Source: Escherichia phage vB_EcoS_AKFV33. Taken from it: 64,000 nucleotides of DNA. The stretch lies in the sequence record NC_017969.1, one strand, 5' to 3'. Below the pieces are notes generated by a model. That model had not been told where the DNA came from. It saw only the letters and a list, made by a program, of their open reading frames with translations, and made no database searches. This document shows positions 15,516-51,682 of the stretch, piece by piece (the first letter of the stretch is position 1; the number at the start of each line of letters is the position of its first letter). Position numbers and translations under genes: made by a program.

Positions 15516-15575
15516 TAATTTATGAACTTATTATACAGAATTTTAAGGCTTAAAGCAACTGAATTTTTTAATTAC

Positions 15576-16007
15576 TTACCAATCGTTAACAACGCCGGAG
15601 AACTCAGAAGCAAAAACTTTTTCAAATTTCTCTGCAATTTCAGGATGATCTTTGCAGATCAGCTCAATACAGGCTTCTGGAGTCATTCCTTCATCTTCAG
15701 GATCACCATAGTATTTATCCCAAAGATCATCAGGAATGATATGCTCCGCCAAATCTTGGAAAGAGATTAACTGATAACGTTCTGCCTCCTCAGCGATAAG
15801 AATTTCGCACAGATCTTTATCTATATCGCTACGATAATCCGCAATTAATAGGGCATTGCAAGCATGACATTCCCAGACCATCAAACGTTCAGAGATAGGA
15901 TTAGACTTATCTTGAACGTAAGACTGGAACAAGGTTCGGAAAGTTGCCTTAACTTGTTCAAACTTATCTGCTGCTGCGAAAACTAGAGCTTTATCAACTT
16001 TGTTCAT
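15576..16007 (-). CDS. hypothetical protein
   Basis: 143 aa ORF; early promoter motif upstream. Confidence 0.5.
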   Translation of the reverse strand: MNKVDKALVFAAADKFEQVKATFRTLFQSYVQDKSNPISERLMVWECHACNALLIADYRSDIDKDLCEILIAEEAERYQLISFQDLAEHIIPDDLWDKYYGDPEDEGMTPEACIELICKDHPEIAEKFEKVFASEFSGVVNDW

Positions 16008-16174
16008 TTTGATTCCTTCTCATCAATTTATAAAGTAATTATACAGAAACTTAAGCATTTTAGCAAATAAAACTTTTAATTAAAATGCCTAATCCCGTAC
16101 CAATAGCAATACAAAGGATTATAAGTATTGCTATCGCTTGTATGATTCGTTTAATAATAGCCCCAGCTATATAC

Positions 16175-16765
16175 TCAGACATTTATATCACCACGTAATA
16201 CAGCAGCTACATCTTCCCCTATTTGTAATACTTCGCCGGTAGTACAATTAACTACTCTGTCATAGCTAGTAAACTTACCAGACACAATATCCTCTAGTGG
16301 AACTGGAGTTTTACTCATTTCAAATGAGACATTAATATAACGTGGGTCACGTAAAGAAATAGTATGTACATGTCCGTGAATATTTAATTTGCCACGAAGT
16401 TCATTAGGATGTAAAGGGCAGTGAGATAGCCAAAACTTTTTGCCACCTCCAGTCTGTTTACCTAGAGCCTGAATATCATCATAAACTTCTGCTAAGTCCC
16501 TAATGCTCAGTCCTTGACGTTCCGCATCATGATTACCCATAATAAGTTGGTTAGGAACATTGTGGATAACCGACTTTAATTTGGCCAGACCTTCACGACC
16601 TACTGCAATATCCCCTAGCAAAATAAGTTTTGTTCTTTTACCAATATGCTTGGACAAAGTGTCTAGAATATACTCATCGTGCTCCTTCATGTTCTTAAAC
16701 CACGGACGGAAACGTAACGCTCCAGGGTGGTCTAAGTGCAAGTCTGACCAGAATTTAACTTTCAT
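16175..16765 (-). CDS. metallophosphoesterase (calcineurin-like)
   Basis: 196 aa; motifs DLHLDH, GDIAVG, GNHD, GHVH. Confidence 0.65.
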   Translation of the reverse strand: MKVKFWSDLHLDHPGALRFRPWFKNMKEHDEYILDTLSKHIGKRTKLILLGDIAVGREGLAKLKSVIHNVPNQLIMGNHDAERQGLSIRDLAEVYDDIQALGKQTGGGKKFWLSHCPLHPNELRGKLNIHGHVHTISLRDPRYINVSFEMSKTPVPLEDIVSGKFTSYDRVVNCTTGEVLQIGEDVAAVLRGDINV

Positions 16766-17054
16766 TACTCTTTTCCTTATTCTGTATTAAATTATCAGCC
16801 CAAGAGGTTAACACTTTGGTTTTAAACTCCTCTAGAGTCTCTCCTTCCTTAAGATCTACCTCATTAAGGTAGGTAGTAAGCCTTGTTTCTATCTCTATTT
16901 CAGCAGGAGAATTAAAACAAAAATTGACTGCTATTCCAGAATATATTACTCCGGTATCTCCTTTGACGAAAGCATTAACTAATGCCCTCCAACGAAGGGC
17001 ATCAATATGCATGGATTGTAATTCTTCTCGTACCTCTTTCATTCTATCATTCAT
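16755..17054 (-). CDS. hypothetical protein
   Basis: 99 aa ORF. Confidence 0.45.
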   Translation of the reverse strand: MNDRMKEVREELQSMHIDALRWRALVNAFVKGDTGVIYSGIAVNFCFNSPAEIEIETRLTTYLNEVDLKEGETLEEFKTKVLTSWADNLIQNKEKSNES

Positions 17055-17929
17055 TAAAGAATCCTCTGTACACCGCAGCTATTATTTTTGTCTGTAGTAA
17101 ATGTGGTGATTTTGCCAGTTTCATCGTTAACTTGCGCAACCGTCAGCTGCCCGTTGAAAACACCACCAGTATCAAGATAAACACGGTTTTTATAGAGTAT
17201 TGGGTAAGGAACCCCAGTGTGTCCGTGGAACACAAAATTTACCCCTTTAACTTCGGGCACTTCTACCATGTATTTTTCTTTAAATCCTGCATAACGCTGA
17301 AAATACGGATGTTCCTCACCGTTTTTGGACAAGTAGAAGCCTATTTCTTGGATTACATCTCGATCCCATAAATATGGTTCAATATGGTACCCAGGATGGT
17401 CATGTGGGTCTTCCTTAGCTGCTTCTACTTGTGCAATAAGATTATCCCATACTGGGGTTTCTACCTCATTACCGCATTCTTTGTATGTAAAAGGTACACC
17501 ACCGTGAACAACACCATACTTCTTACCACGATGTCTAACAGTTAGGAATACTGGCATTTTTTCAGCCATATCTTCGGCGATATTTTTAATGGTGTCTGCA
17601 TCCAGCTCTTCCATAGCCCATATACCACCGTTATACATCCAATTAGCCCAATCTCCTGCAATCATAAATTGGTCGTGATTACCACGGACACTGATAAAAT
17701 GTGGATTATACAGGAATTTGGCTAAAACTTGTAGGTTTTGTGTGCCTCGGTCAATTAAGTCACCAACACATACTAAGCAATCTTTCTTGCTATTATACCC
17801 AGCTAATTTCAACGCATCTTCCAGCAAATCATTGCATCCATGAATATCACCGACGAAAAACAAGTCGGCGTCATCCGGCACTACTAGAGTTTTATGTACA
17901 TTAAATTCTTTTTTCATAATTATTCCCAA
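17054..17929 (-). CDS. serine/threonine protein phosphatase (PPP family)
   Basis: 291 aa; motifs GDIHG, GDLIDRG, GNHD. Confidence 0.75.
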   Translation of the reverse strand: MGIIMKKEFNVHKTLVVPDDADLFFVGDIHGCNDLLEDALKLAGYNSKKDCLVCVGDLIDRGTQNLQVLAKFLYNPHFISVRGNHDQFMIAGDWANWMYNGGIWAMEELDADTIKNIAEDMAEKMPVFLTVRHRGKKYGVVHGGVPFTYKECGNEVETPVWDNLIAQVEAAKEDPHDHPGYHIEPYLWDRDVIQEIGFYLSKNGEEHPYFQRYAGFKEKYMVEVPEVKGVNFVFHGHTGVPYPILYKNRVYLDTGGVFNGQLTVAQVNDETGKITTFTTDKNNSCGVQRIL

Positions 17930-18165
17930 ATAACAGTTAAAATAGTTGTGCCATACTCATTAGATAGTTGGAGAGTATAACCCTCTTTATAGATGGCTTT
18001 TATAGCTTCATAACTAATTTCATCACGATTAAACTGTACAAAAGAACCTCCAATCTCCACAGAAGAAACTATTCTCTTTTTAACATACTTATACGTTTTC
18101 TTCTTGCTCTTAAGGAGTGCAGCTCTATTTATCCTGGCTAAACGTTTTGCTTGTTCCGCTAACAT
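17920..18165 (-). CDS. hypothetical protein
   Basis: 81 aa ORF. Confidence 0.4.
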   Translation of the reverse strand: MLAEQAKRLARINRAALLKSKKKTYKYVKKRIVSSVEIGGSFVQFNRDEISYEAIKAIYKEGYTLQLSNEYGTTILTVIWE

Positions 18166-18169
18166 TTAA

Positions 18170-18550: not shown

Positions 18551-18690
18551 AATACTCCTACTTCTTGAGTGGCAAAGATGGCCATTAATATGACTAAAAT
18601 CCCTACAAAGATAGGAGATGTAAGCATATTAATGGCTCTTCTCTCAAATTTATATAACTATTATACCAAAATTTTTAGCAAAAAGCAAGT

Positions 18691-18721
18691 AAAATAAAAG
18701 CCTGATCAGCTAAGATCAGGC
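18691..18721 (-). terminator. rho-independent terminator candidate
   Basis: hairpin GCCTGATC/GATCAGGC followed by a U-run on minus strand. Confidence 0.45.
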
Positions 18722-18729
18722 TTTGTTTA

Positions 18730-19020
18730 TTAGTCCTCTGGGTTATCATCCAGGAAATTTTTAATAGCTTCGTGCATAGTTTCTTTACGAAGCTGACGTC
18801 CAATCAGAATATGATTAGCTTCTACTCGACCATTAGGTAAGCGATCTGCCAGAACTACTACAGGAACTTGGCGCACACCAAATTTCTGCATTAATTCTGT
18901 ATTATCAGTCTCTTTGTGGACTTCCAAATTATAGTCATTGACTACTTTATCAAATACTGGCTCAAACATTTTGCAAGGGTTGCAGGTGGAACCTTTCAAT
19001 AGATATACTAATTTACTCAT
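18730..19020 (-). CDS. thioredoxin/glutaredoxin-like protein
   Basis: 96 aa; CxxC motif (CNPC) in thioredoxin-fold context. Confidence 0.6.
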   Translation of the reverse strand: MSKLVYLLKGSTCNPCKMFEPVFDKVVNDYNLEVHKETDNTELMQKFGVRQVPVVVLADRLPNGRVEANHILIGRQLRKETMHEAIKNFLDDNPED

Positions 19021-19444
19021 AGTTATTAATGGCCTCTAAGAAGTTTTTCATAGTTTTTACGGTTGCGGTGCTCAGATCAAGATTTACACCCAAACACTCG
19101 GTTAATGCTTCCTGATAAGGAGCCTTTAATCTGCCTTCCGGGACTTCTACCTTCTTATATTCTTTATTTTTGACCTTTTTAATCATAGTCTCTAGTACAA
19201 GAAGCGGTAATTTAGCACCTTCAATATCAGTACCCAAAAGTTCAGTTAAAATTTTATTAAGATCAAGACGAGTTAACTTTTTGCCCTTAGACATAGATGC
19301 ACCTACCTTTGTATCAATAGATTTTTCCGCTTTCTTTTCGAGCTTTTTGTACTCAGGAGAGTCATGATCACGGAGTGCAATGTTTAGCTCGTAATGTGGT
19401 ATACGAAAATGTTCCGCCATTTGAGTATAGAAACGATCAGACAT
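19013..19444 (-). CDS. hypothetical protein
   Basis: 143 aa ORF. Confidence 0.45.
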   Translation of the reverse strand: MSDRFYTQMAEHFRIPHYELNIALRDHDSPEYKKLEKKAEKSIDTKVGASMSKGKKLTRLDLNKILTELLGTDIEGAKLPLLVLETMIKKVKNKEYKKVEVPEGRLKAPYQEALTECLGVNLDLSTATVKTMKNFLEAINNYE

Positions 19445-19519
19445 AATATATACCTCTCTTAACTAATTTATGTATATATTATATAATAACTAGGGCTAAA
19501 AGTCAACTACTTTTTTATC

Positions 19520-19936: not shown

Positions 19937-20013
19937 GGCTTTCTCCTATCTTCAAAAATTATTAAAGCCCCCTTTGCCTAAAAAGGCGGGAGTATTCCCG
20001 CCTAAGTTATTAA

Positions 20014-21080: not shown

Positions 21081-21186
21081 TTGTAACCTCCTCTAACCAG
21101 TACCATTATACTAATTTTTGAGGAAAATTACAATGGGTTTTTAAAGATCACTTCTGGAGCACAAAATTTTGTCGTTGTCAAGAAGA

Positions 21187-21216
21187 ATTTTAGATAAAAG
21201 AAAAGCCAGGGTCGTT
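21187..21216 (-). terminator. rho-independent terminator
   Basis: hairpin GCCAGGG/CCCTGGC with U-run on minus strand, downstream of ClpP-like gene. Confidence 0.5.
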
Positions 21217-21236
21217 AAACCCTGGCTTAAAATTAC

Positions 21237-21833: not shown

Positions 21834-21845
21834 AGCGATCCTTGA

Positions 21846-23986: not shown

Positions 23987-24061
23987 ATTTAATCCTCTTG
24001 CCTCAATCTATAAACATATTATACAAAAGTTTGGGCATCTAAGCAACTAAAATTTTATTAT

Positions 24062-24096
24062 AAAAATAGCCCAGTCGCAAAAGTGCAGGCTGGGCT
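24062..24096 (-). terminator. bidirectional terminator-like hairpin
   Basis: AGCCCAG/CTGGGCT stem flanked by A-run and T-run. Confidence 0.45.
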
Positions 24097-24140
24097 TTGT
24101 CATTATTTGCTTTTGCTAGTAAGTTGACTTAGTGTCAATC

Positions 24141-24521
24141 TTATGTAATATTAGTTTTTCTAGCTTTGTACAGTACCCCTGCATTTCTCCACAATTTGAT
24201 GTCAGCAACTGTTTCCTTATATGGAACAATGGTAGGACCAATTGGGCCAGCAACTAATAGTCCAAAGAACCCTACAATACGCATATAGAACAAACATTCT
24301 TTGGCTGTCATATTATTTACTGCTTTTTTCTGTCTTTCATCTTTAAACTTCTGTTCTTGATCATCAATACGCAGATACTTAACAAACCATTCAGCAGAAT
24401 ATTCATCCAAATGTCTAATAATAGCTATCGCATATCCAGCACCGATTAAAAACCAGGTTGTAACAAGAATTAGTAATATAGTCATATTATCTCCAGTTAG
24501 GGCTAGCAGCCACCTCACCAC
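24141..24521 (-). CDS. membrane protein
   Basis: 126 aa, TM segments. Confidence 0.45.
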   Translation of the reverse strand: MVRWLLALTGDNMTILLILVTTWFLIGAGYAIAIIRHLDEYSAEWFVKYLRIDDQEQKFKDERQKKAVNNMTAKECLFYMRIVGFFGLLVAGPIGPTIVPYKETVADIKLWRNAGVLYKARKTNIT

Positions 24522-26112: not shown

Positions 26113-26142
26113 TTCAAACCTCTCTCATCAATTTATAAATAT

Positions 26143-26172
26143 ATTATAGCAAGAAAAGAGAGGTTTAGCAAA
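26143..26172 (-). promoter_or_regulatory. sigma70-type early promoter (-35 TTTGCT, extended -10 TGCTATAAT)
   Basis: reverse complement shows TTTGCT-n17-TATAAT with A-tract upstream; member of a family repeated more than 20 times. Confidence 0.55.
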
Positions 26173-26188
26173 TGAATTATTTCAGAAT

Positions 26189-26657: not shown

Positions 26658-26972
26658 TTACAGATCGGGGCGTTCATCTTCGAAACAGCCTGAGCTGATT
26701 CCTTCTCCGAATCCTACAAAGCCATCAAATTCATCATTTGAGGTGCTCATAATCATTGCTTCCATTTTCCGGATCTCCGAGGTTTTCATGCCTGCTTTAC
26801 TATTCTTATAGTACTTGTGAGGGTTCCCACACATCCAACAAGAACAGATGCAAGGAGTAGTAGTGATGATACCTAACCGCTTAGGGCTTTCTTCATGTGG
26901 AAAGACTGTCCAGTACTTCTTGCGGTTGTTCTTCACACGTTGCCGGTGATGACGTCTTAATGCTCGATCCAC
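26658..26972 (-). CDS. Cys-rich hypothetical protein
   Basis: 104 aa; CICSCWMCGNPH cluster. Confidence 0.45.
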   Translation of the reverse strand: MDRALRRHHRQRVKNNRKKYWTVFPHEESPKRLGIITTTPCICSCWMCGNPHKYYKNSKAGMKTSEIRKMEAMIMSTSNDEFDGFVGFGEGISSGCFEDERPDL

Positions 26973-28589: not shown

Positions 28590-28619
28590 TTGGCTTCCCT
28601 CTCATTAATTTATATAAAT

Positions 28620-28649
28620 ATTATAACAATAAATAAGAGAGAAAGCAAA
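28620..28649 (-). promoter_or_regulatory. sigma70-type early promoter
   Basis: conserved ATTATAACA..AGCAAA (reverse complement TTTGCT-n17-TATAAT). Confidence 0.5.
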
Positions 28650-28663
28650 TGAATTTTTAAATT

Positions 28664-30529: not shown

Positions 30530-30767
30530 AAATTCTTTAGTTTACTAAGGCTATTAGCTCGGCGTAACTACAGCACCTTCGCTTAGAGCGGAAGGAACTA
30601 CGTCATCTCGCAAACCCAATACACTATTCAGTTGCCGCTGAATCTAGTGGACCAATCTAGAACTTCTCCCGAATCGTAGGGATCGTGCTTTTTGGCAGCC
30701 AGTCCTAGGTCGAGCTAATACCTTAGTGAACTATGATGAGGATTTCTCCTCATCAATTTATATAAAT

Positions 30768-30797
30768 ATTATAACAAGAAATTAAGCATCAAGCAAG
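30768..30797 (-). promoter_or_regulatory. sigma70-type early promoter facing a non-coding island
   Basis: conserved promoter motif; only a 12-codon ORF, then ~200 nt of GC-richer non-coding sequence downstream. Confidence 0.45.
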
Positions 30798-31142
30798 TAC
30801 ATTTTTGCAGACTTCTTGTATTTCCTTAACATCGCTAATGAAAAGGTAATCGGAACTTCCAGAGTGCATACTAGACATTAGTACACCACTATCTGGTGCA
30901 TCTTCTTTTAACGTAATGCCTAACCAGAACTCGGCAAAACTAGGTGTTACCTCACCTTGACTTGCCTTGAATACATCGGCTTCTGTGATCTCCTGACCAG
31001 TAGAAAGTCCCATGTACGGTACGTTCAGATCAATATCTTTGTAGAACTCAGCTAAATCTTGTTCGAAGTCCCAACCTTTAGAGATAGCGAACTCCATTGT
31101 CACATGACCGAAATAACCTTGAATCTTGCTTGATAATTGCAT
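30789..31142 (-). CDS. hypothetical protein
   Basis: track ORF starts at a TTG (31148); first ATG at 31142. Confidence 0.45.
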   Translation of the reverse strand: MQLSSKIQGYFGHVTMEFAISKGWDFEQDLAEFYKDIDLNVPYMGLSTGQEITEADVFKASQGEVTPSFAEFWLGITLKEDAPDSGVLMSSMHSGSSDYLFISDVKEIQEVCKNVLA

Positions 31143-31838: not shown

Positions 31839-31870
31839 TTTGCTTTCCTTCTCTTCACTTTATAAAATAT

Positions 31871-31900
31871 ATTATACAGATAGTTAAGCAGAATAGCAAA
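31871..31900 (-). promoter_or_regulatory. sigma70-type early promoter
   Basis: ATTATACAG..AGCAAATGAATTTTT motif. Confidence 0.5.
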
Positions 31901-32048
31901 TGAATTTTTAATAAATTTACTTATTGTGTAGGCCACCTGGAGGCTACCAACCCCACGGCTGACAAAGAAGTTTGCGAGACCTCTCTTAAATGCCAGAATA
32001 GACCCGCCGATCTATCGGAACCTACATAATAAGTAAACTTTATAGTGT

Positions 32049-33647: not shown

Positions 33648-33886
33648 TTAACACGCTCCGGTAGATCTTCGAGGTTATATTCCGTTGCTACACCAGCAGC
33701 ATCTAATAGTAAACCCATATGTTTAAGGATTTTAGTGATAGATTCACCTTCTGCTTCTTCTACAAAAGAACGTAGATGAACAAAGTCAATACCCCCATCC
33801 ATACCAGAGAAAATGTTTAGTAAGCGGAGCATTACCAGCTTACGTTCATTCAATTCTTGTTCTGTCATGTTGCTTCTCCAGTTCAA
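33644..33886 (-). CDS. hypothetical protein
   Basis: 80 aa ORF; early promoter upstream. Confidence 0.4.
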   Translation of the reverse strand: MNWRSNMTEQELNERKLVMLRLLNIFSGMDGGIDFVHLRSFVEEAEGESITKILKHMGLLLDAAGVATEYNLEDLPERVK

Positions 33887-33918
33887 TTTATGTAATTATT
33901 ATACAGAACTTTTGGAAA

Positions 33919-34206
33919 CTAAGCAACTACATTTTTTAAGAATTTGATACCTTTCTTTTTCTTCTTATATTTCCACGTTAATGGATTCTGTCGATTGTGA
34001 ACGCTTGAGATCTTTGTCTCGTCAAAGTTCTTCAATATCATGTAATCACAGGATAATTGTTCTAATGGAATGTGATTACCGTCAAAAGCATATACATAAG
34101 GCTGTTGACTAGCACGATAATGATAGACTTTGTTAATTCTACGTTTCAGCGACTTATCCGCGCAGTAAATAAAGAAGTTTTCAGGATGCATCAGCAGCTC
34201 CTTCAA
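33919..34206 (-). CDS. hypothetical protein
   Basis: 95 aa ORF (TTG start in track). Confidence 0.4.
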   Translation of the reverse strand: MKELLMHPENFFIYCADKSLKRRINKVYHYRASQQPYVYAFDGNHIPLEQLSCDYMILKNFDETKISSVHNRQNPLTWKYKKKKKGIKFLKNVVA

Positions 34207-34549: not shown

Positions 34550-34677
34550 ATATTTAAAAATACTAAAATACTAGTTTAAACACTTTTAAATATGTTTCCA
34601 AATTAGATAACTATTATACCAAGTTTTAAGGCACTGAGCAAGTCAAATTTTAAAGAACTTGCTCAGTGCTGTATTAG

Positions 34678-34953: not shown

Positions 34954-35043
34954 TAGTTAACTCCTTCATCAATTTATATAACTATTATATCAGAAATTTA
35001 AAGCAAAAGGCAAGTACATTTTTAAAAATTCTATTTGGAGGAG

Positions 35044-36007: not shown

Positions 36008-36085
36008 TGGTGGCTCCCCGAGGATTCGAACCTACGTACCTTCCAGTTATGAGCTGGGTGCTCATACCATATGAGCTTGAGAACC
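36008..36085 (-). tRNA. tRNA-Met or Ile2 (anticodon CAT)
   Basis: D-stem GCTC/GAGC, anticodon loop CTCATAA; position cross-checked against ORF-track frame. Confidence 0.65.
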
Positions 36086-36091: not shown

Positions 36092-36180
36092 TGGCGGAAG
36101 AAGTGGGAATCGAACCCACAAGGCTATATTTCAAACCGACAGATTAGCAATCTGCTGCAATACCGTTATGCTATTCTTCC
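36092..36180 (-). tRNA. tRNA-Ser (anticodon GCT), class II
   Basis: perfect 7-bp acceptor stem; anticodon loop TTGCTAA; long variable arm. Confidence 0.75.
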
Positions 36181-36201
36181 GAATTTATAAGATATATTAT
36201 A

Positions 36202-36720
36202 TTAGAAATTTAGCTTCATAGCAAGAAAATTTTTCAAGTTTTCGGTAGACATCTCATCCACATCTACAGGAGAAACAAAGCCGTTTAATTTTCTAGCAAA
36301 TTTTTCACCCGCAGGATCGTTATTCCCGACAGCTACCAATTTAAAAGGTAATAATTTCAGTTGCTTTAATAACGCTTTTCCTGGAGAAGAACCCAACATT
36401 GCTAGGGCTGGATAACCAGCGTTATGTAACGCAACTGCCTTAAATACAGATTCAGCGATCAATACTACTTTTTCATCTCCATTGAGAGTTTCTAATCCCC
36501 ATACACACTGGGTAGTAGAATAGGTAAAATATTTAGCTTCAAAGGGACACTTACCATGACCTTTTGGAGCAGAAGGATTATAAGTTTGATAGCCTCTCAA
36601 CATCCCAGAGAAATCATACAACGGGACTGTTAGCCATCCTTCCGGACTTAACCAGCAATGATATTTATCTGCATCAAATCCTCTAGATAGAAGATGTTGT
36701 GTTAATTCATCAACACCCAT
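36202..36720 (-). CDS. small TOPRIM-like domain protein
   Basis: 172 aa; VVLIAESVFKA..YPALAMLGSS..LVAVGNNDPAGEKFARKL resembles the TOPRIM acidic motif arrangement; call is low-certainty. Confidence 0.5.
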   Translation of the reverse strand: MGVDELTQHLLSRGFDADKYHCWLSPEGWLTVPLYDFSGMLRGYQTYNPSAPKGHGKCPFEAKYFTYSTTQCVWGLETLNGDEKVVLIAESVFKAVALHNAGYPALAMLGSSPGKALLKQLKLLPFKLVAVGNNDPAGEKFARKLNGFVSPVDVDEMSTENLKNFLAMKLNF

Positions 36721-36816
36721 GTTTAATCTCCTAGTTAGTTTTATAATTACATTATATAGAAAAGCCCTGCGCTCTCCAGGAAACGCAGGGCTTACTTTAG
36801 ATGTTACATGCGGGTA

Positions 36817-38375: not shown

Positions 38376-38447
38376 TACCGACCGTAGGATTCGAACCTAC
38401 ATCTTCCACCAGTTACGGCTTGATAATACCAATTATACTAGGACGGC
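38376..38447 (-). ncRNA. tRNA-like element with canonical T-arm but no resolvable anticodon arm
   Basis: T-arm GTAGG-TTCGAAT-CCTAC; acceptor pairing 6/7. Confidence 0.3.
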
Positions 38448-38525
38448 AGTGTTACTACATAAGTGATTTCCACACCCCACTATTTATAAATTAGATGCCT
38501 AATTATCATCTAATTTATGAATATA

Positions 38526-38554
38526 TTATATAGAATTTATAAGCATTTAGCAAA
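38526..38554 (-). promoter_or_regulatory. sigma70-type early promoter reading into the tRNA cluster
   Basis: ATTATATAG..AGCAAATGAATTTTT motif. Confidence 0.5.
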
Positions 38555-38561
38555 TGAATTT

Positions 38562-38996
38562 TTAGAAAAATTCGCTAGCAATCAAAGCAGTTGTTTTACC
38601 TTCATAACGCCCTGGAAACTCTGCCTTAATGGTTTTCATTAAGAGAGCTTTGGTAATGCCGGGGTTTAGCTTAACCAGTTCTGCAAAGTATTTACGAATT
38701 TCAGTTTCAGTCAGTTGACTTGGCTGATACTCTTGCAGCATGGAATAAAGCAGTTGCTCATAGTCTACATCAGTAGGAACTTTCGTACCAACTTTAATAG
38801 CGCGCTGCTTTGCATTTTCTAGAGCCTTAATCTGAGCTTTCAGATAGGCTACGAACTCGGTTCGAGTAACAATATCTTTATCAATACGTTGCAGGTCGCC
38901 AATCATGGTCTGAAGATTAAGCGCCCGCTCTTTATCACCGTGAGTACGTGCTAGACTAAGCAGTCCACGAAGGGTCATTAGGATATTTTCACCCAT
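38562..38996 (-). CDS. hypothetical protein
   Basis: 144 aa ORF. Confidence 0.45.
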   Translation of the reverse strand: MGENILMTLRGLLSLARTHGDKERALNLQTMIGDLQRIDKDIVTRTEFVAYLKAQIKALENAKQRAIKVGTKVPTDVDYEQLLYSMLQEYQPSQLTETEIRKYFAELVKLNPGITKALLMKTIKAEFPGRYEGKTTALIASEFF

Positions 38997-39234
38997 TATT
39001 TCATCCCCAGTGCTTGGTTAAAAGATTGCTCTGTCATAACTGCTGAGACTTTGGCGAAATCAAACTTTTTAGGGTTCGTAGTGATTTCAGCAACGTTAGA
39101 AGTTTTAACAGTTTTCGTAGTACGAATACCGCGAGTGTTAACACCAATAATTACAACTGATTTCATATTTCGCTTCCTCTCATTAATTTATGAAAGTATT
39201 ATACAGAAATTTAAGTAGTTAAGCAAGTAACTTT

Positions 39235-39702
39235 TTAAGTTTTAGTGACAACAGGTTTATAGAATGTATGTCCCTTAATCTTAGTTGTTTTCTTAAATTT
39301 CTTTGTCCAGTAAGGTTTATCTTTACCACTATGGAAGTATAGTGCTCCATGTGTAGGATCTTGTGGTAAATCAACGTAGTATATCACTCTAGCTAAATTC
39401 TTAGCGGTTTGCCAAGCCTCATCAGTTTTATCAACTTTTGGTCTCTTAGATACCCAAGAGAACTGGTTAGACTGATATACTACTTTACAGTAGGAATCTG
39501 GGAATTTACCGGAGTTTACACGGTTTTTAGTAACATGTGCAATTGCCGTCATTCCCTTTATGCCCTCACCACGACTCTCGAAATAGATATTTTTAGCAAT
39601 GCAATCTATTTCTTTTGCATCGTGCGATGCCTGACTACTAAAGCTGAAGGTAAGGGCAGCTACTAAAAGCAAAGCTGCCTTCATTCTTTTTACTCCTGCC
39701 AA
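39235..39702 (-). CDS. cell-wall hydrolase, SleB/Hydrolase_2-like, with signal peptide
   Basis: 155 aa; signal peptide; NIYFESRGEG..VTKNRV..QFSWV motif. Confidence 0.6.
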   Translation of the reverse strand: MAGVKRMKAALLLVAALTFSFSSQASHDAKEIDCIAKNIYFESRGEGIKGMTAIAHVTKNRVNSGKFPDSYCKVVYQSNQFSWVSKRPKVDKTDEAWQTAKNLARVIYYVDLPQDPTHGALYFHSGKDKPYWTKKFKKTTKIKGHTFYKPVVTKT

Positions 39703-40007: not shown

Positions 40008-40449
40008 AATAGCCTCGTTTCATCAATTTAAAAATATATTATACATATAATTTAGTAGATTAGCAAATACATTTTTAAATTGTGAAACTAGTAAACCGAT
40101 AAACAGCCTAGAGGCGCCACAGGCCATATCTTATGAGCCATGTACCTTTGATCTAGGGTTTGAATCATCAACGAATACTTTGCATCTTTTAGCTTTAGAA
40201 GTTTAGAAGTTTGAGTTCTTTAAACTTTTCAGCTTTCATACTTAAATGTTGATCTTTGAAGTTGTGTCGGTAATATCAACGACGCTTTGTTCTTACGTGT
40301 CAGCTTAAAAGGCTGGTGTAATAAACATAATCTCCAATAGATTATACTTTATAGTATGGTCAGCGGTCTTATTTAACCTCGTATTTCAACCGCTGCTGCG
40401 AGGTAAGATGCTTGGGCTTTCGTCTACCGATTTACTAGCTTTTAAATTA

Positions 40450-41324: not shown

Positions 41325-41394
41325 ATATGTTTTCCTTTTATTGTTTTCTCAAATTTATGAATATATTATACAGAATTTTGGGGCCGGAAGCAAA

Positions 41395-42096
41395 TCAAAT
41401 TTTCATTTTTTCGATCATAGCTGCAACACAATAGCTTTCAACTAAGGCATCAAATGCAGGATCATGCTTAACCGGATAGATCCCATAACGAATAGTGTCC
41501 ATCTTCTCCATTTTAGCTATTGCCCAGCTAATACCTTCGGTCTCTAGAGCCTTATAACTGTATCCAGCTTGCATCCAGAGATTACGAAGAGATCGAACAT
41601 TGCCCAAATTCCAGAATTTCCACGGAACTACCTCTTCATTGGTTCCAGCATGGAACGTGTTTGCAGAGTAGATAGTCATATCAAACTCTGGGCCATTGCC
41701 ATAATACAAAGCATTTTCACCTAGAGCCAACTCCATAATATTTTGAGCCATAGAGAAGGCAGCATAGTTTGAGCCTAATTTATTAGTGCAATGATGTTTA
41801 CCATTTTGGAAGGCAATCAGTTTTGGATTACGTTCCTTCATGGCTTCCATAATGTGGATAGCAGACGGGCTATTTTTAGCTTGATCCATCCAGAATGCTA
41901 GAGTAGATGCTGTAACTTTGGCACCAGAATTAAGCTGATCCTGCACATCCAAAGTAGCAAATACTAAGTCAGGGTCTTTATCAATCCCATGCATAGCCAC
42001 AAAAGCGAAAGAAGGCATTGCGATATGAGTAGTACCACAATCTCCTGGAGTTCCTAGAGATTCAATATCTAGCATACCAAATGGTTTTACTTTCAT
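41395..42096 (-). CDS. DEDDh-type 3'-5' exonuclease (DnaQ/RNase T-like), tentative
   Basis: 233 aa; Exo I-like LDIES and Exo III-like HDPAFDAL motifs. Confidence 0.5.
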   Translation of the reverse strand: MKVKPFGMLDIESLGTPGDCGTTHIAMPSFAFVAMHGIDKDPDLVFATLDVQDQLNSGAKVTASTLAFWMDQAKNSPSAIHIMEAMKERNPKLIAFQNGKHHCTNKLGSNYAAFSMAQNIMELALGENALYYGNGPEFDMTIYSANTFHAGTNEEVVPWKFWNLGNVRSLRNLWMQAGYSYKALETEGISWAIAKMEKMDTIRYGIYPVKHDPAFDALVESYCVAAMIEKMKI

Positions 42097-42681: not shown

Positions 42682-43197
42682 TTACTTCGCTTTACGCTTG
42701 CGAGCTGGTTTAGCAGATTTACGAGCAGAATCACCCGTGAACTTAATGCCTACACCGTAACACAGAGCACGAACATTATCTTTACTATACTCTACGCCAA
42801 AGATATTTGGCTTAACAGAACCAAACTGTCCACGAGTATCACGCAATACATCTGCTGTTGGTTTACGCTTCTGGTTAACTGCCTTCTCATAGTCTTTCAT
42901 AGACATACCATTACGAGAGAACAATTCAGCCCCAGCGTTGAAGCTCAGGGAAACTGGGACAGATTTGTGGCCGTAATTTTCTACATACATAACCATTTTG
43001 TAGGATTTACGGGTGGCATTTTTAGCTTTAGGCTTCTTACGAATCGGAGCCGGATTATTCAGTGCTTGCGCAGCCTGAGCATCGGTAGGATGCTTACGCA
43101 GGTGGCGTTCCAGACGAGCTTTGCGATTAGCCTCGGTCTGCGGGAAAGTTTTAACTGCCGGAGCTGCTTGAGTTTTTGCGTTTTTCTGCTTAGCCAT
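42682..43197 (-). CDS. basic (putative nucleic-acid-binding) protein
   Basis: 171 aa; Lys/Arg-rich termini. Confidence 0.45.
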   Translation of the reverse strand: MAKQKNAKTQAAPAVKTFPQTEANRKARLERHLRKHPTDAQAAQALNNPAPIRKKPKAKNATRKSYKMVMYVENYGHKSVPVSLSFNAGAELFSRNGMSMKDYEKAVNQKRKPTADVLRDTRGQFGSVKPNIFGVEYSKDNVRALCYGVGIKFTGDSARKSAKPARKRKAK

Positions 43198-43280
43198 TAT
43201 TTGTTTTCCTTTTTGTTTATCAATTTATGAAGTATATTATACGAGAATTTGAAGCGTTTAGCAAATGAATTTTTTAAAAA

Positions 43281-43559: not shown

Positions 43560-43635
43560 AAAGCCCTCCTCACTTTCAATACGAATATTATACTAAATTA
43601 GAGGGCTTTAAGCAAGAAAATTTTTAATTTATTTA

Positions 43636-44375: not shown

Positions 44376-44469
44376 ATGTATACCTCCAATTTATAAAATA
44401 TATTATATTTAAATTTCACTAAATAAGCAAATGAAATTTAAATATAATAGCCCCGAAGGGCTATTTGAG

Positions 44470-44823
44470 TTAAATTATAATCAAGATTATGAGAGCATAG
44501 GTTAAGTAATGGAGTAACTGATCAAATCCTAAAGCTATCCAAAACTTGGAATCACTTATATCGTATTTACAGCGTTGTGCTTTCCAGTAATCTATGATAA
44601 AGTGTAGGATTAATTCCATTATAGCTAAAGTTATAGCCATTCCTAGTGATGTGAACATAGTAAGAATTATAAAGGTTAGTCCAGCATGTACTAGAGAATG
44701 GGTTAGTAATGGAAGTTTCCATCCTATTTTGTGAGTCTTCCTTAACATGTATGGAGTTTGGAGGGGATAATCAGCCATAAAATGTTTCAGGAAGAATATA
44801 ACAAATAATAATATTGTAAACAT
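44470..44823 (-). CDS. membrane protein
   Basis: 117 aa, multiple TM segments. Confidence 0.45.
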   Translation of the reverse strand: MFTILLFVIFFLKHFMADYPLQTPYMLRKTHKIGWKLPLLTHSLVHAGLTFIILTMFTSLGMAITLAIMELILHFIIDYWKAQRCKYDISDSKFWIALGFDQLLHYLTYALIILIII

Positions 44824-44826
44824 ATA

Positions 44827-46214: not shown

Positions 46215-47356
46215 AAGAAATCTCCAAATTCATTACCCAGATCTTTCAGAGTATCAGTAGAGGTTTCGGTGACTTGACCTACACGATATGCTGCACCAAT
46301 CTGGATTTCTTGTGGAGCAGGCTGTAAAGAAGTGGTATCCAACCAGTTCATGATCCACGGAATAGGGTTTTTGGTGATTACTGGTAAATGACTAGGCCAT
46401 TCTACACCGATGTGCATAAATGCATTACGTCCCACAAAATACAGATATTCTTCTAGAAGTTCTGCATTTAAACCAATCAGACTACGACCTTTGAAAATGA
46501 AATGACCCCATTCAATTTCAGTTTTCAGAGTTTTCAGAAGCTGTGCGGGTGCTTTAGCCAATGCTTCATCCACCAGATCTTTGTCAAACTGCTGGAACAT
46601 AATCTGGATGATTGCTTTAGACATCTGAGTGTGTAGAGCTTCATCTTTAGCGATTAGTTGTAGGTTTTTAGCAATACCTTGCAGAATATCGTTCTCTGCT
46701 AATGCAAAGGTACATGCAAAGGATGCGTAAAACTGCATTGCTTCCAGACCGTAGATTGCAAAGTAAGCGTCTAATAGCTTAGCCTGAGTTTCACGTTTAA
46801 CTTCAGGGAACTCAGTTTCTGGATACGTATTGTCGCCACGATGATCGCGTACTGCGATGAAATACTGACCTAACTGATATAGCTCATCAAATAGCTCAAC
46901 AGAATCAGCGATGCGTGCGAATGCTTCCTGGTTTTTGGTTACAGAATCAATAAATTCTGCTGGATCAGTCAGCACATTACGAATAATATTGCTATAAGCA
47001 CGACTATGCAGATCTTCAAAATAGCTCCACTGCTTGAGCATACCTTCCAATTCTGGGCGACTTACAAGTGGCATAATAGCTGCTTCAGGGGCACGACTGA
47101 TAAAGGAGTCAGTTTGAGTTTGCCATGCTAAGTTCAGGAGTGTAATTTCCTGAATTTCACGCGGGAGATTACCCCACTGCTTTTTATCAGCTTCAAGACT
47201 AATTTCAGTTTCAGTCCAGAACTGGGAACGCTGCAACAGAGCTAATCGCTCTAGTTCGGGGTGTGCCACACGCACATAATCTGCGATACCCAAAGAATCA
47301 CCTAGGAAAAGATCAGCGTTAGTATGGTCCCATTCTAAGTTAAGTAAAGTAGTCAT
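46211..47356 (-). CDS. nrdB: ribonucleotide reductase class Ia beta subunit
   Basis: 381 aa; di-iron ligand motifs, C-terminal tail. Confidence 0.85.
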   Translation of the reverse strand: MTTLLNLEWDHTNADLFLGDSLGIADYVRVAHPELERLALLQRSQFWTETEISLEADKKQWGNLPREIQEITLLNLAWQTQTDSFISRAPEAAIMPLVSRPELEGMLKQWSYFEDLHSRAYSNIIRNVLTDPAEFIDSVTKNQEAFARIADSVELFDELYQLGQYFIAVRDHRGDNTYPETEFPEVKRETQAKLLDAYFAIYGLEAMQFYASFACTFALAENDILQGIAKNLQLIAKDEALHTQMSKAIIQIMFQQFDKDLVDEALAKAPAQLLKTLKTEIEWGHFIFKGRSLIGLNAELLEEYLYFVGRNAFMHIGVEWPSHLPVITKNPIPWIMNWLDTTSLQPAPQEIQIGAAYRVGQVTETSTDTLKDLGNEFGDFL

Positions 47357-47850
47357 TTAGCTTCTCCGTTGTTTGCAAAGTCCCCATGAAGTTCTAGTAG
47401 TTTGATGTCTCTCCATTCTATAGCTTCTTCTAGGGTTTTAAAAGTTTTTGTGTAAGATTTGCCGTCTTTGCCTATCCTAACCTGAAATGAAGTGCCTTTT
47501 ACACGAATATTTTTCATTCCAAGCTGGTTATCCGCTCTTGCACACGAGTTCATAGAATTTTGAGAACTCGTGGCTTCACGGAGATTATCCCAGGCACAGT
47601 TGGACGGATTAGTATCTTTATGGTCGATTTTTCCTTCTGGTATTTCTCCAGTCATATACAAGAAGGCTAGGCGATGAGCTAAATATTGAACTCCTTCAAC
47701 TTTTATACGAAGATACCCTAATTTATCGTAGGTTCCTGCTTTAGCGTTCCATAAATGCTTTGCTAAAGTTTTTCTTGGGAGCCAGGTAAATTCGCCAGTT
47801 TCAGGGTCATAGGAGATTAGCTCTTTTAATCTACTCTGTGTTAATTTCAT
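47353..47850 (-). CDS. HNH homing endonuclease-like protein between nrdA and nrdB
   Basis: 165 aa; HNH-type motif (YLRIKVEGVQYLAHRLAF..IDHKD..N) plus C-terminal AP2-like region. Confidence 0.7.
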   Translation of the reverse strand: MKLTQSRLKELISYDPETGEFTWLPRKTLAKHLWNAKAGTYDKLGYLRIKVEGVQYLAHRLAFLYMTGEIPEGKIDHKDTNPSNCAWDNLREATSSQNSMNSCARADNQLGMKNIRVKGTSFQVRIGKDGKSYTKTFKTLEEAIEWRDIKLLELHGDFANNGEAK

Positions 47851-47896
47851 ATAGATATTATAGCAAATCTGGTAGCGATTAGCAAGTAAAATTTCA

Positions 47897-47930
47897 AAGA
47901 AAAAGGAGACCCGAAGATCTCCTTGTTTTT
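47897..47930 (-). terminator. bidirectional terminator hairpin
   Basis: AGGAGA/TCTCCT stem flanked by A-run and T-run, downstream of nrdA. Confidence 0.45.
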
Positions 47931-47931
47931 A

Positions 47932-50262
47932 TTAAATAGTACAACCACCGGATGCACAACCGGCTGCTTCTTCTCCAGCACCTCCACCATTTGCGGTATT
48001 GAAGTTAGCGTAATACCAAGTTTTCCACCCATACTTAACAGCAGTCATGAAATCACGAACTACTACTGGGCCAGGAATGATTTCATTCTCAAACTTGGTG
48101 TAGTCATAGTACATATTCGTACTGATAGACTGACTGAAGAATTTCTGCATAGTTGCTACCCATTTGATCCACTCGATACGATCTACATCATAAGCCAGTT
48201 TATAGCTCATTAACGTTTCCCAATCGGTTGCACCTGGAGCAATTGCAATTACTTTATTTACTGCACTACCTTTAATAGATACAATCTTACGAGGCGGTTC
48301 GATAGAGTTAGTAACTCCTAGCAGAACAGAAGAACTTTCTCCTGGCATCTGAGCAGTCAGAACAGAGTTACGCATACCATATTTCAGAATATCTGCACGC
48401 AGAGACTCCCAATCCATTTCTAGACCTACGGATACCAGTTCATCAACAGTTTTCTTGTACGTGTCGATTACCAGAATTCCTTTAGATGGTTTAGTGCGAT
48501 CAAACCACTCGCATGCACCCTGTTCTTTAGCTAGGCGTACAGAGGCTTTATGCAGGAAGTAAGACAGTTTTTCAGCCTCACGGTGAATCCAGTTACGGGC
48601 TTCAATACCTTCATAAGCCAGACCTTCTGCTGCCATTGCACCTGCTGCGTTCATTAGTCCAATACCAACATTACGACGTTTCTTAGCCGTATATTCCATA
48701 GTTGGGAACGGATAATCCTGAATTTCAATAATTGTATCAACGAATTTCAGAAGGATGTAGCAAGTTTTTTCCCACTCAGCCAGAGATTCCATGCGCCCAA
48801 GTACAACACCACCTAAGTTACACAGAGATACTTCACCAATATCCTCCGGCTTCATTTGATCAAGCTGCTCTTTTGTCTTATACAGCTCTGTGATATGATG
48901 GAACGGGCGTGTAGGCTGAGTAATTTCAACACAAAGGTTTGTCATACGGATCGGATCAAGGAAGTTACCGTGACGATTAGATTCCCCGATGTGATGAGCA
49001 TACATACGTCCTGTTTCCATTCGGATACGTAGCCAAGTATCTAGGATTTCTTTTGCAGAGACTTTAGGAGCTGCAGGAACTGTTTTTCCTTCGTGGTCGA
49101 TCTTTGTAAGAGATGCCACACGTTTCTCCGCTGCCACGTAGATTTCTTCAAATTTAGCCTCGTCATCACTATAAAACGCTTCATGAACTTCTGGAGCATA
49201 GAAGTATGACATTAGCGTAATATCTTCGTTTTTAAGATAACGTTTTAACAAAAGATTGTTAAAGCTCAGAGAATAATCCATCTTATCGATTTTATTCTCA
49301 TCTGTAGCACGTTGTTGCTTAACCTGCATCAATTGAATGATTTCAGGGTCGAAGTATGGATAAGACACTGTAGCAGAACCACCACGAGTTTGCTGAGTAT
49401 TGGCCTTTACTGAGCGGTCAATGTGTCGATAATATGGTAGTTTTCCGGAATGCGGGAATGCCCCATTTCGCACCGGATCAGCAATTGATCGGCTTTCAAG
49501 ATGATACCCGATTCCCGCTCTGGCTGCGACCATTTTGAAGACGATGTGCTCGGCGGTGTCGATTGAATCCAACGTGTCAGTGGAATCCACGAGGCAGCAA
49601 CTAGCAAATCCACGGTCACTAGAGCGCAGACCAACCAGTGGCGGCGTAGGAACGTTGATTTTGTGGAGTGACATTGCGTTGTAGAGGTCGATTGCATCTA
49701 GAATTGTCCAGTTAGGTTGAGATAACATCGCCATTGCCATACCCATGTAGGCAAACTGCGGAGTTTCATAAATTTCACCAGTGGCTATGTTACGACGGGA
49801 ATACTTATCAAAGAACTGCTTCAGTCCACCACTAGTAAAAAGACGGTCACGATCATGGTCGATAACCTGATTCAGAGCTTCAAATTGCTCATCGGTAATC
49901 CATGCACTCATGTCTTCCCATGCACCTACGCTAACCATGTGGTCATGGAAGAAGCGCAGAGAAGGCGGTTCGAAGGAATCATAAAGGCGTTTACGCATTT
50001 GCGCAAGACGTAATTCCTTTGCTGGCACATCATATGCTGGATTATCTTTAATAAGACTTTCAGCAGCTTTAATTAATGCATCCATCAGAGTGTCGGAATC
50101 TACAACCCCTTTAGGCAGAGTTTTTTGAGCAGCCATAGTAATGGCTGACCAACTTACATCAACTGTTTTGCAACCATACTCTGCCCAACCATTTAGTTTT
50201 TCAGGAGCAAAGTCTTCTACAGTACCGTCACGTTTAATTACTTTTTCAATGCGATGGCTCAT
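47932..50262 (-). CDS. nrdA: ribonucleotide reductase class Ia alpha subunit
   Basis: ATP-cone N-terminus (MSHRIEKVIKRDGT); track ORF extends to 50367 but ATG at 50262 has SD AAAGGAAAG. Confidence 0.85.
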   Translation of the reverse strand: MSHRIEKVIKRDGTVEDFAPEKLNGWAEYGCKTVDVSWSAITMAAQKTLPKGVVDSDTLMDALIKAAESLIKDNPAYDVPAKELRLAQMRKRLYDSFEPPSLRFFHDHMVSVGAWEDMSAWITDEQFEALNQVIDHDRDRLFTSGGLKQFFDKYSRRNIATGEIYETPQFAYMGMAMAMLSQPNWTILDAIDLYNAMSLHKINVPTPPLVGLRSSDRGFASCCLVDSTDTLDSIDTAEHIVFKMVAARAGIGYHLESRSIADPVRNGAFPHSGKLPYYRHIDRSVKANTQQTRGGSATVSYPYFDPEIIQLMQVKQQRATDENKIDKMDYSLSFNNLLLKRYLKNEDITLMSYFYAPEVHEAFYSDDEAKFEEIYVAAEKRVASLTKIDHEGKTVPAAPKVSAKEILDTWLRIRMETGRMYAHHIGESNRHGNFLDPIRMTNLCVEITQPTRPFHHITELYKTKEQLDQMKPEDIGEVSLCNLGGVVLGRMESLAEWEKTCYILLKFVDTIIEIQDYPFPTMEYTAKKRRNVGIGLMNAAGAMAAEGLAYEGIEARNWIHREAEKLSYFLHKASVRLAKEQGACEWFDRTKPSKGILVIDTYKKTVDELVSVGLEMDWESLRADILKYGMRNSVLTAQMPGESSSVLLGVTNSIEPPRKIVSIKGSAVNKVIAIAPGATDWETLMSYKLAYDVDRIEWIKWVATMQKFFSQSISTNMYYDYTKFENEIIPGPVVVRDFMTAVKYGWKTWYYANFNTANGGGAGEEAAGCASGGCTI

Positions 50263-50404
50263 TTGGCTTTCCTTTTTATAGTTATCAGGATTTAAGGAAT
50301 ATTCTACTTTATTATCGGTCATTAGGCAAATAAAATTTTCTGATAGAAAAGGCCCGAGTATTTTCATACCCAGGCCCTGTATATTACCAGTCTAGCTTTT
50401 TAGC

Positions 50405-50626
50405 TTATTCAATTACTTTAGCTCTAGCTACTTCTTTTAATAGAATATCTATGGAGGTGCTCAGCTCGTTATAATTGAATGGTTTATTTGGATTTGAGGT
50501 TACAATTTTCCACGCTAGGGTTGTCTTAGGACTTTCTTCCCCTTCCTTACGTGTAATCATATTAGCAGCACTCAGTGAAGTACGATGTATTTTAGTTTTA
50601 CGGCTCAGATGAACGACGTTTCCCAT
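50405..50626 (-). CDS. hypothetical protein
   Basis: track ORF trimmed to ATG abutting phoH stop. Confidence 0.4.
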   Translation of the reverse strand: MGNVVHLSRKTKIHRTSLSAANMITRKEGEESPKTTLAWKIVTSNPNKPFNYNELSTSIDILLKEVARAKVIE

Positions 50627-50627
50627 A

Positions 50628-51380
50628 TTACACCTTCCCCATGTCTTTAAAGATGTCATAGAATGCTTTAGACTCAACAGAACGAACGTTATCAATCAAT
50701 TCGATCATTGAGAATGGGGCATTTTCGTATTTCTCATAGACTTCCATAAGGAGTGCTAGACCTGAGTCACCTTTAATGTCTTTCTGAGCTATATCTCCGC
50801 AGATAATTAAACGGCAGTCTTGTCCTACACGAGTTAGAAGACAAATCATTGCCTCAACGGAAATATTCTGAGCTTCATCGACAATTACATAGGAGTTGTT
50901 GAAAGTTCTGCCACGAGCATGTTCGACAGCCAAAAATTTAATTTTCTGACGTTCGACATATCCCTTATAGGCATGATCGCCGATGGCCCATTTCATACCA
51001 TCAGCTATTGGCTCCAACCAAGGCTCTAGCTTTTCTGCTAGATCACCAGGAAGCATACCAAGAGACTTACCTAGAGGTTCATTAGGACGTACGAGGATAA
51101 CTTGCTCAATATCTGAGTGAATGTCTACGAGTTCCTGAGCTGCAAGAACGGACGGAATAAAGGTTTTACCAGTACCTGGCTCACCGATACCCACAGTCAC
51201 TGTGTTGTTCTTGATCATATTGATATATGATTTTTGCTCGCGGTTTTTACCTACTAGGGATTTAGCAACTGGGTTAGCGTAATCATTAGAAAAATCAGCC
51301 TGAATTACGTTATTCTCATACTTGTTGCCACGCTTTCTTGAACCATTGCGGTTCTCTCTTTTTTGACGTGCTTTTCCCAT
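50628..51380 (-). CDS. phoH: PhoH-like ATPase
   Basis: Walker A GEPGTGKTF; ATG at 51380 has SD AGGAG upstream (track starts at a GTG). Confidence 0.8.
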   Translation of the reverse strand: MGKARQKRENRNGSRKRGNKYENNVIQADFSNDYANPVAKSLVGKNREQKSYINMIKNNTVTVGIGEPGTGKTFIPSVLAAQELVDIHSDIEQVILVRPNEPLGKSLGMLPGDLAEKLEPWLEPIADGMKWAIGDHAYKGYVERQKIKFLAVEHARGRTFNNSYVIVDEAQNISVEAMICLLTRVGQDCRLIICGDIAQKDIKGDSGLALLMEVYEKYENAPFSMIELIDNVRSVESKAFYDIFKDMGKV

Positions 51381-51682
51381 AAATAACACTCCTATAGTGT
51401 ACTTCGCTAACAGAGGATCAACAAAAAGATCTTGTTTATCAACTTACAAATATATTATACCAATATATACAGTAAAAAGCAACTACAATTTTAAATAAGC
51501 CTATGATATTGCATTTAAATAAAAAATTTGCTTGCTTTTAACGTGAGATGTGTGATACTAGATAATCATTTTATATCGCGTACACGAGTGCGTGATTATA
51601 CAATCTTTAATAGAAATTGGCAAATAAAATTTTTTCAAAAATTGATTAAAGTCAAGTTATTTAAGAATGCTAAAAAATTTTA

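Follow-up and report, generated by a model that had tools for sequence, protein, structure and literature searches.

The left part of the genome of Escherichia phage vB_EcoS_AKFV33 (NC_017969.1) carries many copies of a short element with an A-tract, a TTGCT hexamer and a TATAAT hexamer, which raises the question of what these elements are and why sequence downstream of the predicted transcription start is conserved along with them. The stretch analysed here (the window) comprises 64,000 nucleotides, which in their entirety represent the left 64 kb of a T5-like genome (Tequintavirus) and align colinearly with T5 (NC_005859) by blastn, window position 12 corresponding to T5 position 15. Megablast of window positions 30-40 kb returned 589 phage records, led by T5-like phages of Escherichia and Salmonella with 95-98% identity. 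The first ~10 kb of the window are taken up by the terminal repeat and the pre-early region. Early genes are then oriented leftward from ~11 to 51.6 kb, a block in which ARAGORN called 23 tRNA genes, and rightward from 51.7 kb on. Judged by their sequence, the elements would be promoters of the early class in a T5-like phage, used by the unmodified host sigma70 RNA polymerase, an assignment to which we give a probability of roughly 0.9.

An exact search for TTGCT-N16-18-TATAAT returned 25 matches in the window, compared to 0.41 expected from dinucleotide shuffles (0 of 100 shuffles above 3), indicating that the conserved promoter family proposed in an earlier sequence-only reading of this DNA is real. 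Twenty of these matches lie on the − strand (15530-51482), all with a 17-bp spacer, and four lie on the + strand (54286-63967); the leftover match, on the − strand of the pre-early region at 2952-2978, has a 16-bp spacer and is probably due to chance. The spacer is 17 bp long in 24 of the 25 exact matches, two further members (TTGCCT and TTGCAA) have an 18-bp spacer, and a relaxed search with TTGC gave 27 matches. The weight-matrix scan suggested together with the family was run on the window, using a matrix that covers -47 to +20 and a background of 30 random Markov windows. Twenty-four sites scored above 40 bits, compared to a random maximum of 8.8 bits, and ~7 more were weaker or variant, all of them within 12.5-64 kb. 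The downstream pattern TATAAT-N6-ATAAATT (one mismatch or less) was found 19 times compared to 0.9 expected. The family is present in the range first claimed for it, 15520-51480, but reaches further, to 63993. An AT-rich genome (~39% G+C, with TATAAT found 109 times over both strands) might yield such matches by chance; this explanation is refuted by the shuffles, and it is also at odds with an orientation that always agrees with gene direction and with the orthology of the sites to experimentally defined T5 promoters, so that we consider its probability negligible.

Nearly every site, and every one of the strong sites, has a counterpart promoter feature in the T5 record NC_005859, many of them named; these RefSeq features are 75 bp long, from approximately -55 to +20, and take their names from older mapping literature. 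The proposed fit to the strong sigma70 promoters of T5-type phages is borne out by this orthology, and the family is that of the already known T5 early promoters, including N25, and not a new kind of element. N25 is a classic promoter in expression vectors and a textbook strong sigma70 promoter. For N25 and some other T5 promoters, use by the E. coli sigma70 holoenzyme with early kinetics during infection is documented in the literature (PMC7472727, PMC12464699). At P-N25 (hexamer-spacer match at 61697-61725), the window and T5 are identical from -45 to +14. With respect to promoter class, the matrix scan detected none of the family over the window's pre-early 1-12 kb, and the sole strong match in the T5 late region (85-111.5 kb, 26.5 kb) was the lpp/Cor (llp) promoter. 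This promoter, at the far end of the late region (T5 110349-110423, + strand), is a full early-family member with 44.4 bits. The superinfection-exclusion gene llp is expressed early, with which membership in the family would fit. A half-module, TATAAT-atacat-ATAAATTAATGAGA, was also seen in the pre-early terminal repeat (5601-5633, + strand), without a recognisable -35 element at 16-18 bp.

The promoter module is ~70 bp long and conserved from -45 to about +17, with information dropping to zero upstream of ~-47 and downstream of ~+20. It consists of an UP-like A-tract, AAAAATTnA, at -45 to -37 (0.6-1.3 bits per position), a -35 element TTGCT(T/A), an AT-rich spacer of 17 bp in which a G/C patch (-26 to -24) and A/T runs (-21 to -16) are conserved, a perfect TATAAT as the -10 element, and an AT-rich discriminator of 6 bp, sometimes 7 bp. 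When tested for a full UP element of the rrnB P1 type, with proximal (-46 to -38) and distal (-57 to -47) A/T subsites, the modules showed conservation of the proximal-like A-tract and at most 0.6 bit in the distal region; N25 is ~66% homologous to the full UP element according to Hsu and Han (PMC12464699). The TG-TATAAT sequence that had been described as general is found in only nine of the 27 promoters, where the TG abuts TATAAT and is out of register, while nine have the canonical TGn and nine have neither. An extended -10 element (TGn; T at -15, G at -14) was rejected as a family trait, since the canonical register occurs in only those 9/27.

The UP position of seven modules is occupied not by the A-tract but by the T-tract of a terminator hairpin located upstream, indicating that one transcription unit ends where the next begins. 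Terminator-promoter fusions were observed at 18700-18745, 24055-24100, 44435-44470, 47897-47925, 54240-54275, and 63890-63925, with G+C-rich hairpins that end at ~-40 to -56 and a T-tract in place of the UP A-tract. The intergenic location that had been ascribed to the promoters does not hold for several modules, which overlap the 3′ end or last codons of the upstream open-reading frame (ORF), as in the case of the transcription start site (TSS) at 36189 with a stop codon at -13.

The position of the transcript start was taken from N25, where the oligonucleotide TATAATAGATTCAT covers -12 to +2 (PMC7472727), making ATATTT the untranscribed discriminator (-6 to -1) and the A of cATAAATT the +1 position. 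The block ATATTTATAAATTGATGA, which had been placed at +1 to +15, is therefore conserved as proposed, but it spans -6 to +12. In the discriminator, A at -6 (22/24) and T at -3 (20/24) are the most regular features, only about a third of the modules have the complete ATATT, and the forms that occur include ATATTT, ATTTAT, AGATTC, AGTTAT, and ACTTTC. The predicted first nucleotide of the transcripts is the A of ATAAATTGA, and downstream of this sequence lies a purine run; ATAAATT is found exactly at +1 in 15 of the 27 promoters and within 2 nt of it in 18. The rightward promoters, which the sequence-only reading had described as TTGCTT-n17-TATAAT, share their discriminator and transcribed block with the leftward ones and are therefore not a separate type.

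In ~17 modules, a GAGAGG-type Shine-Dalgarno purine run lies at ~+11 to +17 with an ATG at +21 to +28, and conservation reaches ~+17. The downstream block might accordingly be mainly a translation leader, in which ribosomal protein S1 would use an AU-rich 5′ end and the Shine-Dalgarno sequence would keep a constant distance to the ATG. This explanation can be weighed at the four modules that drive RNA genes, which agree with the T5 annotation and with the claim that several promoters are aimed at tRNA or non-coding RNA. The TSS at 30761 (P13b) lies 232 nt before tRNA-Ala and gives a non-coding RNA (RNA2H in T5); downstream of the TSS at 34606 (P14a), a tRNA-Tyr/Glu/Trp/Phe cluster begins after 57 nt; tRNA-Ser begins 9 nt downstream of the TSS at 36189 (P15b); and the TSS at 38518 (P16-17) drives a non-coding RNA (RNAX in T5), in which a tRNA-like element follows the initial hairpin. 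ATAAATT is kept at +1 in three of these four promoters (P13b, P15b, and P16-17), where translation is irrelevant, and changing +3 to +20 of N25 alters escape in purified, ribosome-free reactions (PMC12464699). A transcription-related segment, +1 to +9, can therefore be separated from a translation-related one, +10 to +20. It is very likely that the translation leader accounts for +10 to +20 and is not the main reason for the conservation of +1 to +9, and as an explanation of the block as a whole we consider it unlikely.

Several further observations were made on these RNAs. In the P13b transcript (30734-30755, − strand), the Shine-Dalgarno-like GAUGAGGAG at +7 to +15 pairs with CUCCUCAUC in a 9-bp hairpin (fold z = -3.0). 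The RNAX-type transcript (38486-38518, − strand; locus L001, 41541-41573) starts with a 12-bp hairpin from +1, of which the conserved ATAAATTAG forms the 5′ arm; in T5 this hairpin has 13 bp with compensatory changes (GAUG/CAUC versus GAGAG/CUCUC), and Salmonella phage bombadil (Epseptimavirus) is without it. The RNAX promoter is also annotated in the BF23 tRNA-region record. Two Rfam tRNA matches on the − strand were not called by ARAGORN, one at 38376-38447 (35.5 bits), ~70 nt downstream of the P16-17-type start in the RNAX region, and one at 36011-36085 (38.2 bits), at the position of T5 tRNA-Ile2. The Rfam search of the leaders returned tRNA matches only and no known RNA family.

A possible mechanism is provided by N25, in which TTGCTT and TATAAT, separated by a 17-bp AT-rich 'spacer UP', are combined with an UP element and a 6-bp discriminator. 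Experiments have established that its initial transcribed sequence governs escape from the promoter, the rate-limiting step; the native sequence gives the fastest escape, and antiDSR replacement of +3 to +20 results in ~10-fold less full-length RNA (PMC12464699). By extension from this literature, the same element roles and control by escape may apply across all members of the family. The A-tract at -45 to -37, or the terminator T-tract, would provide the alpha C-terminal domains with a proximal UP element, and the -35 element, spacer, and TATAAT would lead to very fast and tight polymerase binding. Binding this tight would leave escape as the rate-limiting step, which would make the conserved initial transcribed sequence a part of the promoter, one that sets the rate of polymerase escape into productive elongation. 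GAGAGG at ~+11 to +17 is the Shine-Dalgarno sequence, ahead of an ATG that in most modules lies at ~+21 to +28.

A number of points weigh against this reading of the sites and of their transcribed start. The start sites of the AKFV33 promoters are predicted from sequence, the mechanistic data are limited to N25 and a few other T5 promoters, and primer-extension products were obtained in vivo for only 11 of 19 tested T5 promoters (PMC7472727); a literature search for published T5 start-site or transcriptome data gave nothing usable. Several good members (TSS 34606, 43580, and 47850) are without the block. On randomised transcribed sequences at lambda PR, deoB, and lacUV5, escape is slowed by T-rich starts, TG at ~+5 to +7, and weak RNA:DNA hybrids (PMC5961368). 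The T5 block has T at +2, +6, and +7 and a very AU-rich hybrid, and TG is found at +7/+8 or +8/+9 in 17 of the 27 promoters. The block therefore carries all three slow-escape features, in tension with the escape role proposed for it.

This unfavourable look by general rules is one of the observations behind another proposal, that the discriminator and transcribed block (A at -6, T at -3, and ATAAATTGA at +1) are a mark by which a phage-modified polymerase, involving gpT5.026 and/or unknown partners, turns down the ~30 early promoters at the early-to-late switch. The mechanism of this switch in T5 was called unknown by Klimuk et al., who reported the ATATT discriminator in all known early T5 promoters, a weakening of polymerase binding at -5/+2 by gpT5.026, and a rise of early transcripts without gpT5.026 (PMC7472727). 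The block is specific to the early class, is conserved in phages of E. coli and of Klebsiella as well as in contigs inferred to be of Vibrio type, and, in the form ATATTT|ATAAATT, is partly palindromic around +1. However, the discriminator varies between members, the site has no known DNA-binding regulator, and the arms of the palindrome shift register from member to member, so that we regard the proposal as tentative and rather doubtful. The palindrome around +1 was observed as ATTTATAAAT or ATTTATATAAAT, and the differing register of its arms argues against a fixed dimer operator.

The reading of the sites as early promoters for host polymerase was followed into related genomes. The same module was found at 29 sites in 46 kb of bombadil and at 20 sites in 43 kb of the Klebsiella Sugarlandvirus PWKp9S, for which only ~20% of a 6.1-kb window query aligned, at ~70% identity. 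It is also present in 128-kb viral contigs inferred to be of Vibrio type, and among the matches listed in a pattern scan of viral contigs, the multi-hit contigs were 104-128 kb long, the size of T5-like genomes. Orthologous sites (window compared to bombadil) share an identity of 0.94 at +1 to +9, 0.93 in the UP element, 0.81 in the spacer, and 0.60-0.75 in the flanks; for paralogs (different copies within the window), the corresponding values are 0.58, 0.66, 0.41, and 0.27, the last being at background level (27-28%). Orthologs thus keep private spacers, indicating that each promoter is its own conserved lineage and that the shared features reflect selection and not recent copying. Concerted evolution or recent duplication of the module was rejected on the basis of these private spacers together with the background-level flank identity. 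Bombadil also has nadR/pnuC-like genes between P15a and a primase-like gene (locus L004, 15400-17700), unlike T5 and the window, as well as two extra family promoters (TSS 15810 and 15446), of which 15810 shares the P15a discriminator and transcribed block.

The modules might also be recombination linkers or mobile promoter cassettes that shuffle T5-like genes, like the promoter-stem-loop (PeSL) repeats of T4-type phages. Comparison of the window with ~120 loci of T5-like genomes gave 180 unique homology breakpoints, of which 24 fall within -55 to +40 of a TSS, compared to 10 expected if uniform (2.4-fold, p = 7e-5), and several gene replacements start at +2 to +38 or at ~-50. With a null restricted to non-coding DNA, this excess is lost (15 observed compared to 15.7 expected, p = 0.63). 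BLAST extends through any shared module, so that breakpoints at module edges are expected anyway, and the retention of private ortholog spacers and lack of homogenisation between copies within the genome are further points against mobility. We therefore consider this explanation very improbable, and a PeSL-like recombination hotspot was rejected, as the modules hold no more breakpoints than non-coding DNA elsewhere. Within 11000-64000, non-coding DNA holds 63 of the 180 breakpoints compared to 15.6% of positions (p ~1e-10), and many breakpoints lie at gene starts just past the transcribed block (+6 to +36) or just upstream of the A-tract (-45 to -57).

The individual sites can be followed along the leftward block, where all lie on the − strand. 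The first, with a TSS at ~12492 (12473-12539), is an atypical outlier, TTGACG-17-TATAAT without the ATAAATT block, which scores 20.9 bits and has its T5 ortholog at 13212-13286. It is followed by early promoters at TSS ~15523 (15504-15570; 63.7 bits; module 100% identical to T5 16245-16319; ATG at +27), TSS ~16031, which is T5 P-F30 (16012-16078; 55.8 bits; T5 match at 16772, with P-F30 annotated at 16779-16784), and TSS ~18653 (18634-18700; 57.1 bits), where a terminator T-tract stands in place of the UP A-tract and the hairpin (-17.5 kcal/mol) ends at -43. A variant member at TSS ~19471 (19452-19518; 30.3 bits; T5 19368-19442) has a TTGACT -35 element and has kept ATAAATT. Further early promoters lie at TSS ~24011 (23992-24058; 55.3 bits; T5 24443-24517), with a terminator hairpin upstream, and TSS ~26136 (26117-26183; 53.9 bits; T5 26722-26796).

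The tRNA region begins with T5 P11 at TSS ~28613 (28594-28660; 57.9 bits), directly downstream of tRNA-Thr. Next are P13b at TSS ~30761 (30742-30808; 54.8 bits), with no ORF downstream, P13a at TSS ~31864 (31845-31911; 48.8 bits), where the ATAAA block is displaced by 1 nt, P14b at TSS ~33891 (33872-33938; 52.3 bits), P14a at TSS ~34606 (34587-34653; 54.5 bits), with the non-consensus transcribed start CTAATTTGG, and P15c at TSS ~34977 (34958-35025), with an 18-bp spacer. P15b at TSS ~36189 (36170-36236; 41.1 bits) overlaps the 3′ end of an upstream ORF of 172 amino acids. T5 P15a is represented by a decayed remnant (36735-36800) in which the -35 and UP elements are gone and a terminator hairpin (ccctgcg...cgcaggg plus T-run) is joined directly to TATAAT. 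The T5 segment 37841-39727, with P12, T5.077-079, and a bidirectional terminator region, is absent from the window.

Beyond this region lie P16-17 at TSS ~38518 (38499-38565; 55.6 bits), P-D/E33 at TSS ~39191 (39172-39238; 60.6 bits), and early promoters at TSS ~40031 (40012-40078; 59.6 bits; T5 43067-43141) and TSS ~41358 (41339-41405; 59.5 bits; T5 44393-44467). P-H207 at TSS ~43229 (43210-43276; 51.0 bits) is 100% identical to T5 over the module, and the promoter at TSS ~43580 (43561-43627; 43.0 bits; T5 46337-46411) has the non-consensus start ATTGAAAGTGAGG. The promoter at TSS ~44395 (44376-44442; 41.9 bits) has a terminator hairpin upstream. At TSS ~47850 (47831-47897; 46.0 bits; T5 50061-50135), the ATG of an ORF for a 165-residue HNH homing endonuclease stands exactly at the predicted +1 (TATAAT-atctat-ATG; promoter and ORF region 47353-47897, − strand), which allows no Shine-Dalgarno sequence and implies a leaderless mRNA. 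The same layout was seen in 27 phage records (at least 80% query cover), including SPC35 and Th1; in T5, the corresponding position is occupied by another HNH gene, whose leader is normal. A weak member at TSS ~50294 (50275-50341; TTGCCT-17-TAGAAT; 15.1 bits) lies upstream of an nrdA-like ORF of 776 amino acids. The promoter at TSS ~51447 (51428-51494; 48.8 bits) is 100% identical over the module to T5 53638-53712 and has a 67-nt leader, and an upstream tandem promoter at TSS ~51588 (51569-51635; TTGCCA-17-TATAAT; 14.8 bits; T5 53776-53850) is without the family discriminator or transcribed block.

On the + strand, the rightward block begins with an early promoter at TSS ~54321 (54274-54340; 53.3 bits; T5 55708-55782), with a terminator hairpin upstream, and a member at TSS ~58193 (58145-58212; T5 58999-59073), with TTGCAA, an 18-bp spacer, and a long untranslated leader. 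These are followed by P-N25 at TSS ~61732 (61685-61751; 60.0 bits; T5 P-N25 63043-63117), P-N26 at TSS ~62758 (62711-62777; 51.9 bits), named from the T5 annotation, and an early promoter at TSS ~63974 (63927-63993; 48.8 bits) that corresponds to the ligA promoter of T5 (65284-65358).

The motif provides a reliable map of promoters, and hence of transcription units, for the early half of AKFV33 and of other T5-like genomes, whose annotations mostly leave promoters out. The whole module, including its transcribed start, is conserved in at least three named Demerecviridae genera and in the Vibrio-type contigs. The start, which is AU-rich and contains T and TG, is strongly preserved although such features go with slow escape in general studies, and it might have a double role as a handle for early-gene shut-off.

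Among known systems, the closest are the T5 early promoters themselves (P-N25, P-N26, P-H207, P-D/E33, P-K28a, and P11 to P16-17), known from the work of the Bujard, Ksenzenko, and Hsu laboratories and annotated in NC_005859, which have the same architecture, consensus, positions, and targets. The differences between the window and T5 are at the strain level: P15a is decayed, another HNH endonuclease follows the nrdA-nrdB promoter, and there are a few point changes in spacers. The T5 late promoters P-G25 and P-J5 belong to the same phage, use the same polymerase, and also have an upstream A-tract and a -10 element near consensus, but are without TTGCT and ATAAATT, have TTGATA or TTGACA as the -35 element and a different discriminator, and score only 19.7 and <8.8 bits, respectively, with the early matrix. 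The PeSL repeats of T4-type phages, reportedly described by Arbiol et al. in 2010, are said to be early promoter-stem-loop modules between small genes in a mosaic region. The T5-like modules resemble them in that a conserved early promoter recurs many times between the small genes of a mosaic region, but have no obligatory stem-loop, are not homogenised between copies, and show no link to breakpoints beyond that of non-coding DNA. Finally, T7 A1 and lambda PL/PR share with the T5 family the use of host sigma70, near-consensus hexamers, a 17-bp spacer, UP-like A/T tracts, and very rapid polymerase binding (PMC12464699), whereas the T5 family differs from them in having TTGCTT and not TTGACA, a perfect TATAAT, a family-wide discriminator and transcribed block, and, by extension from N25, limitation at the step of escape.

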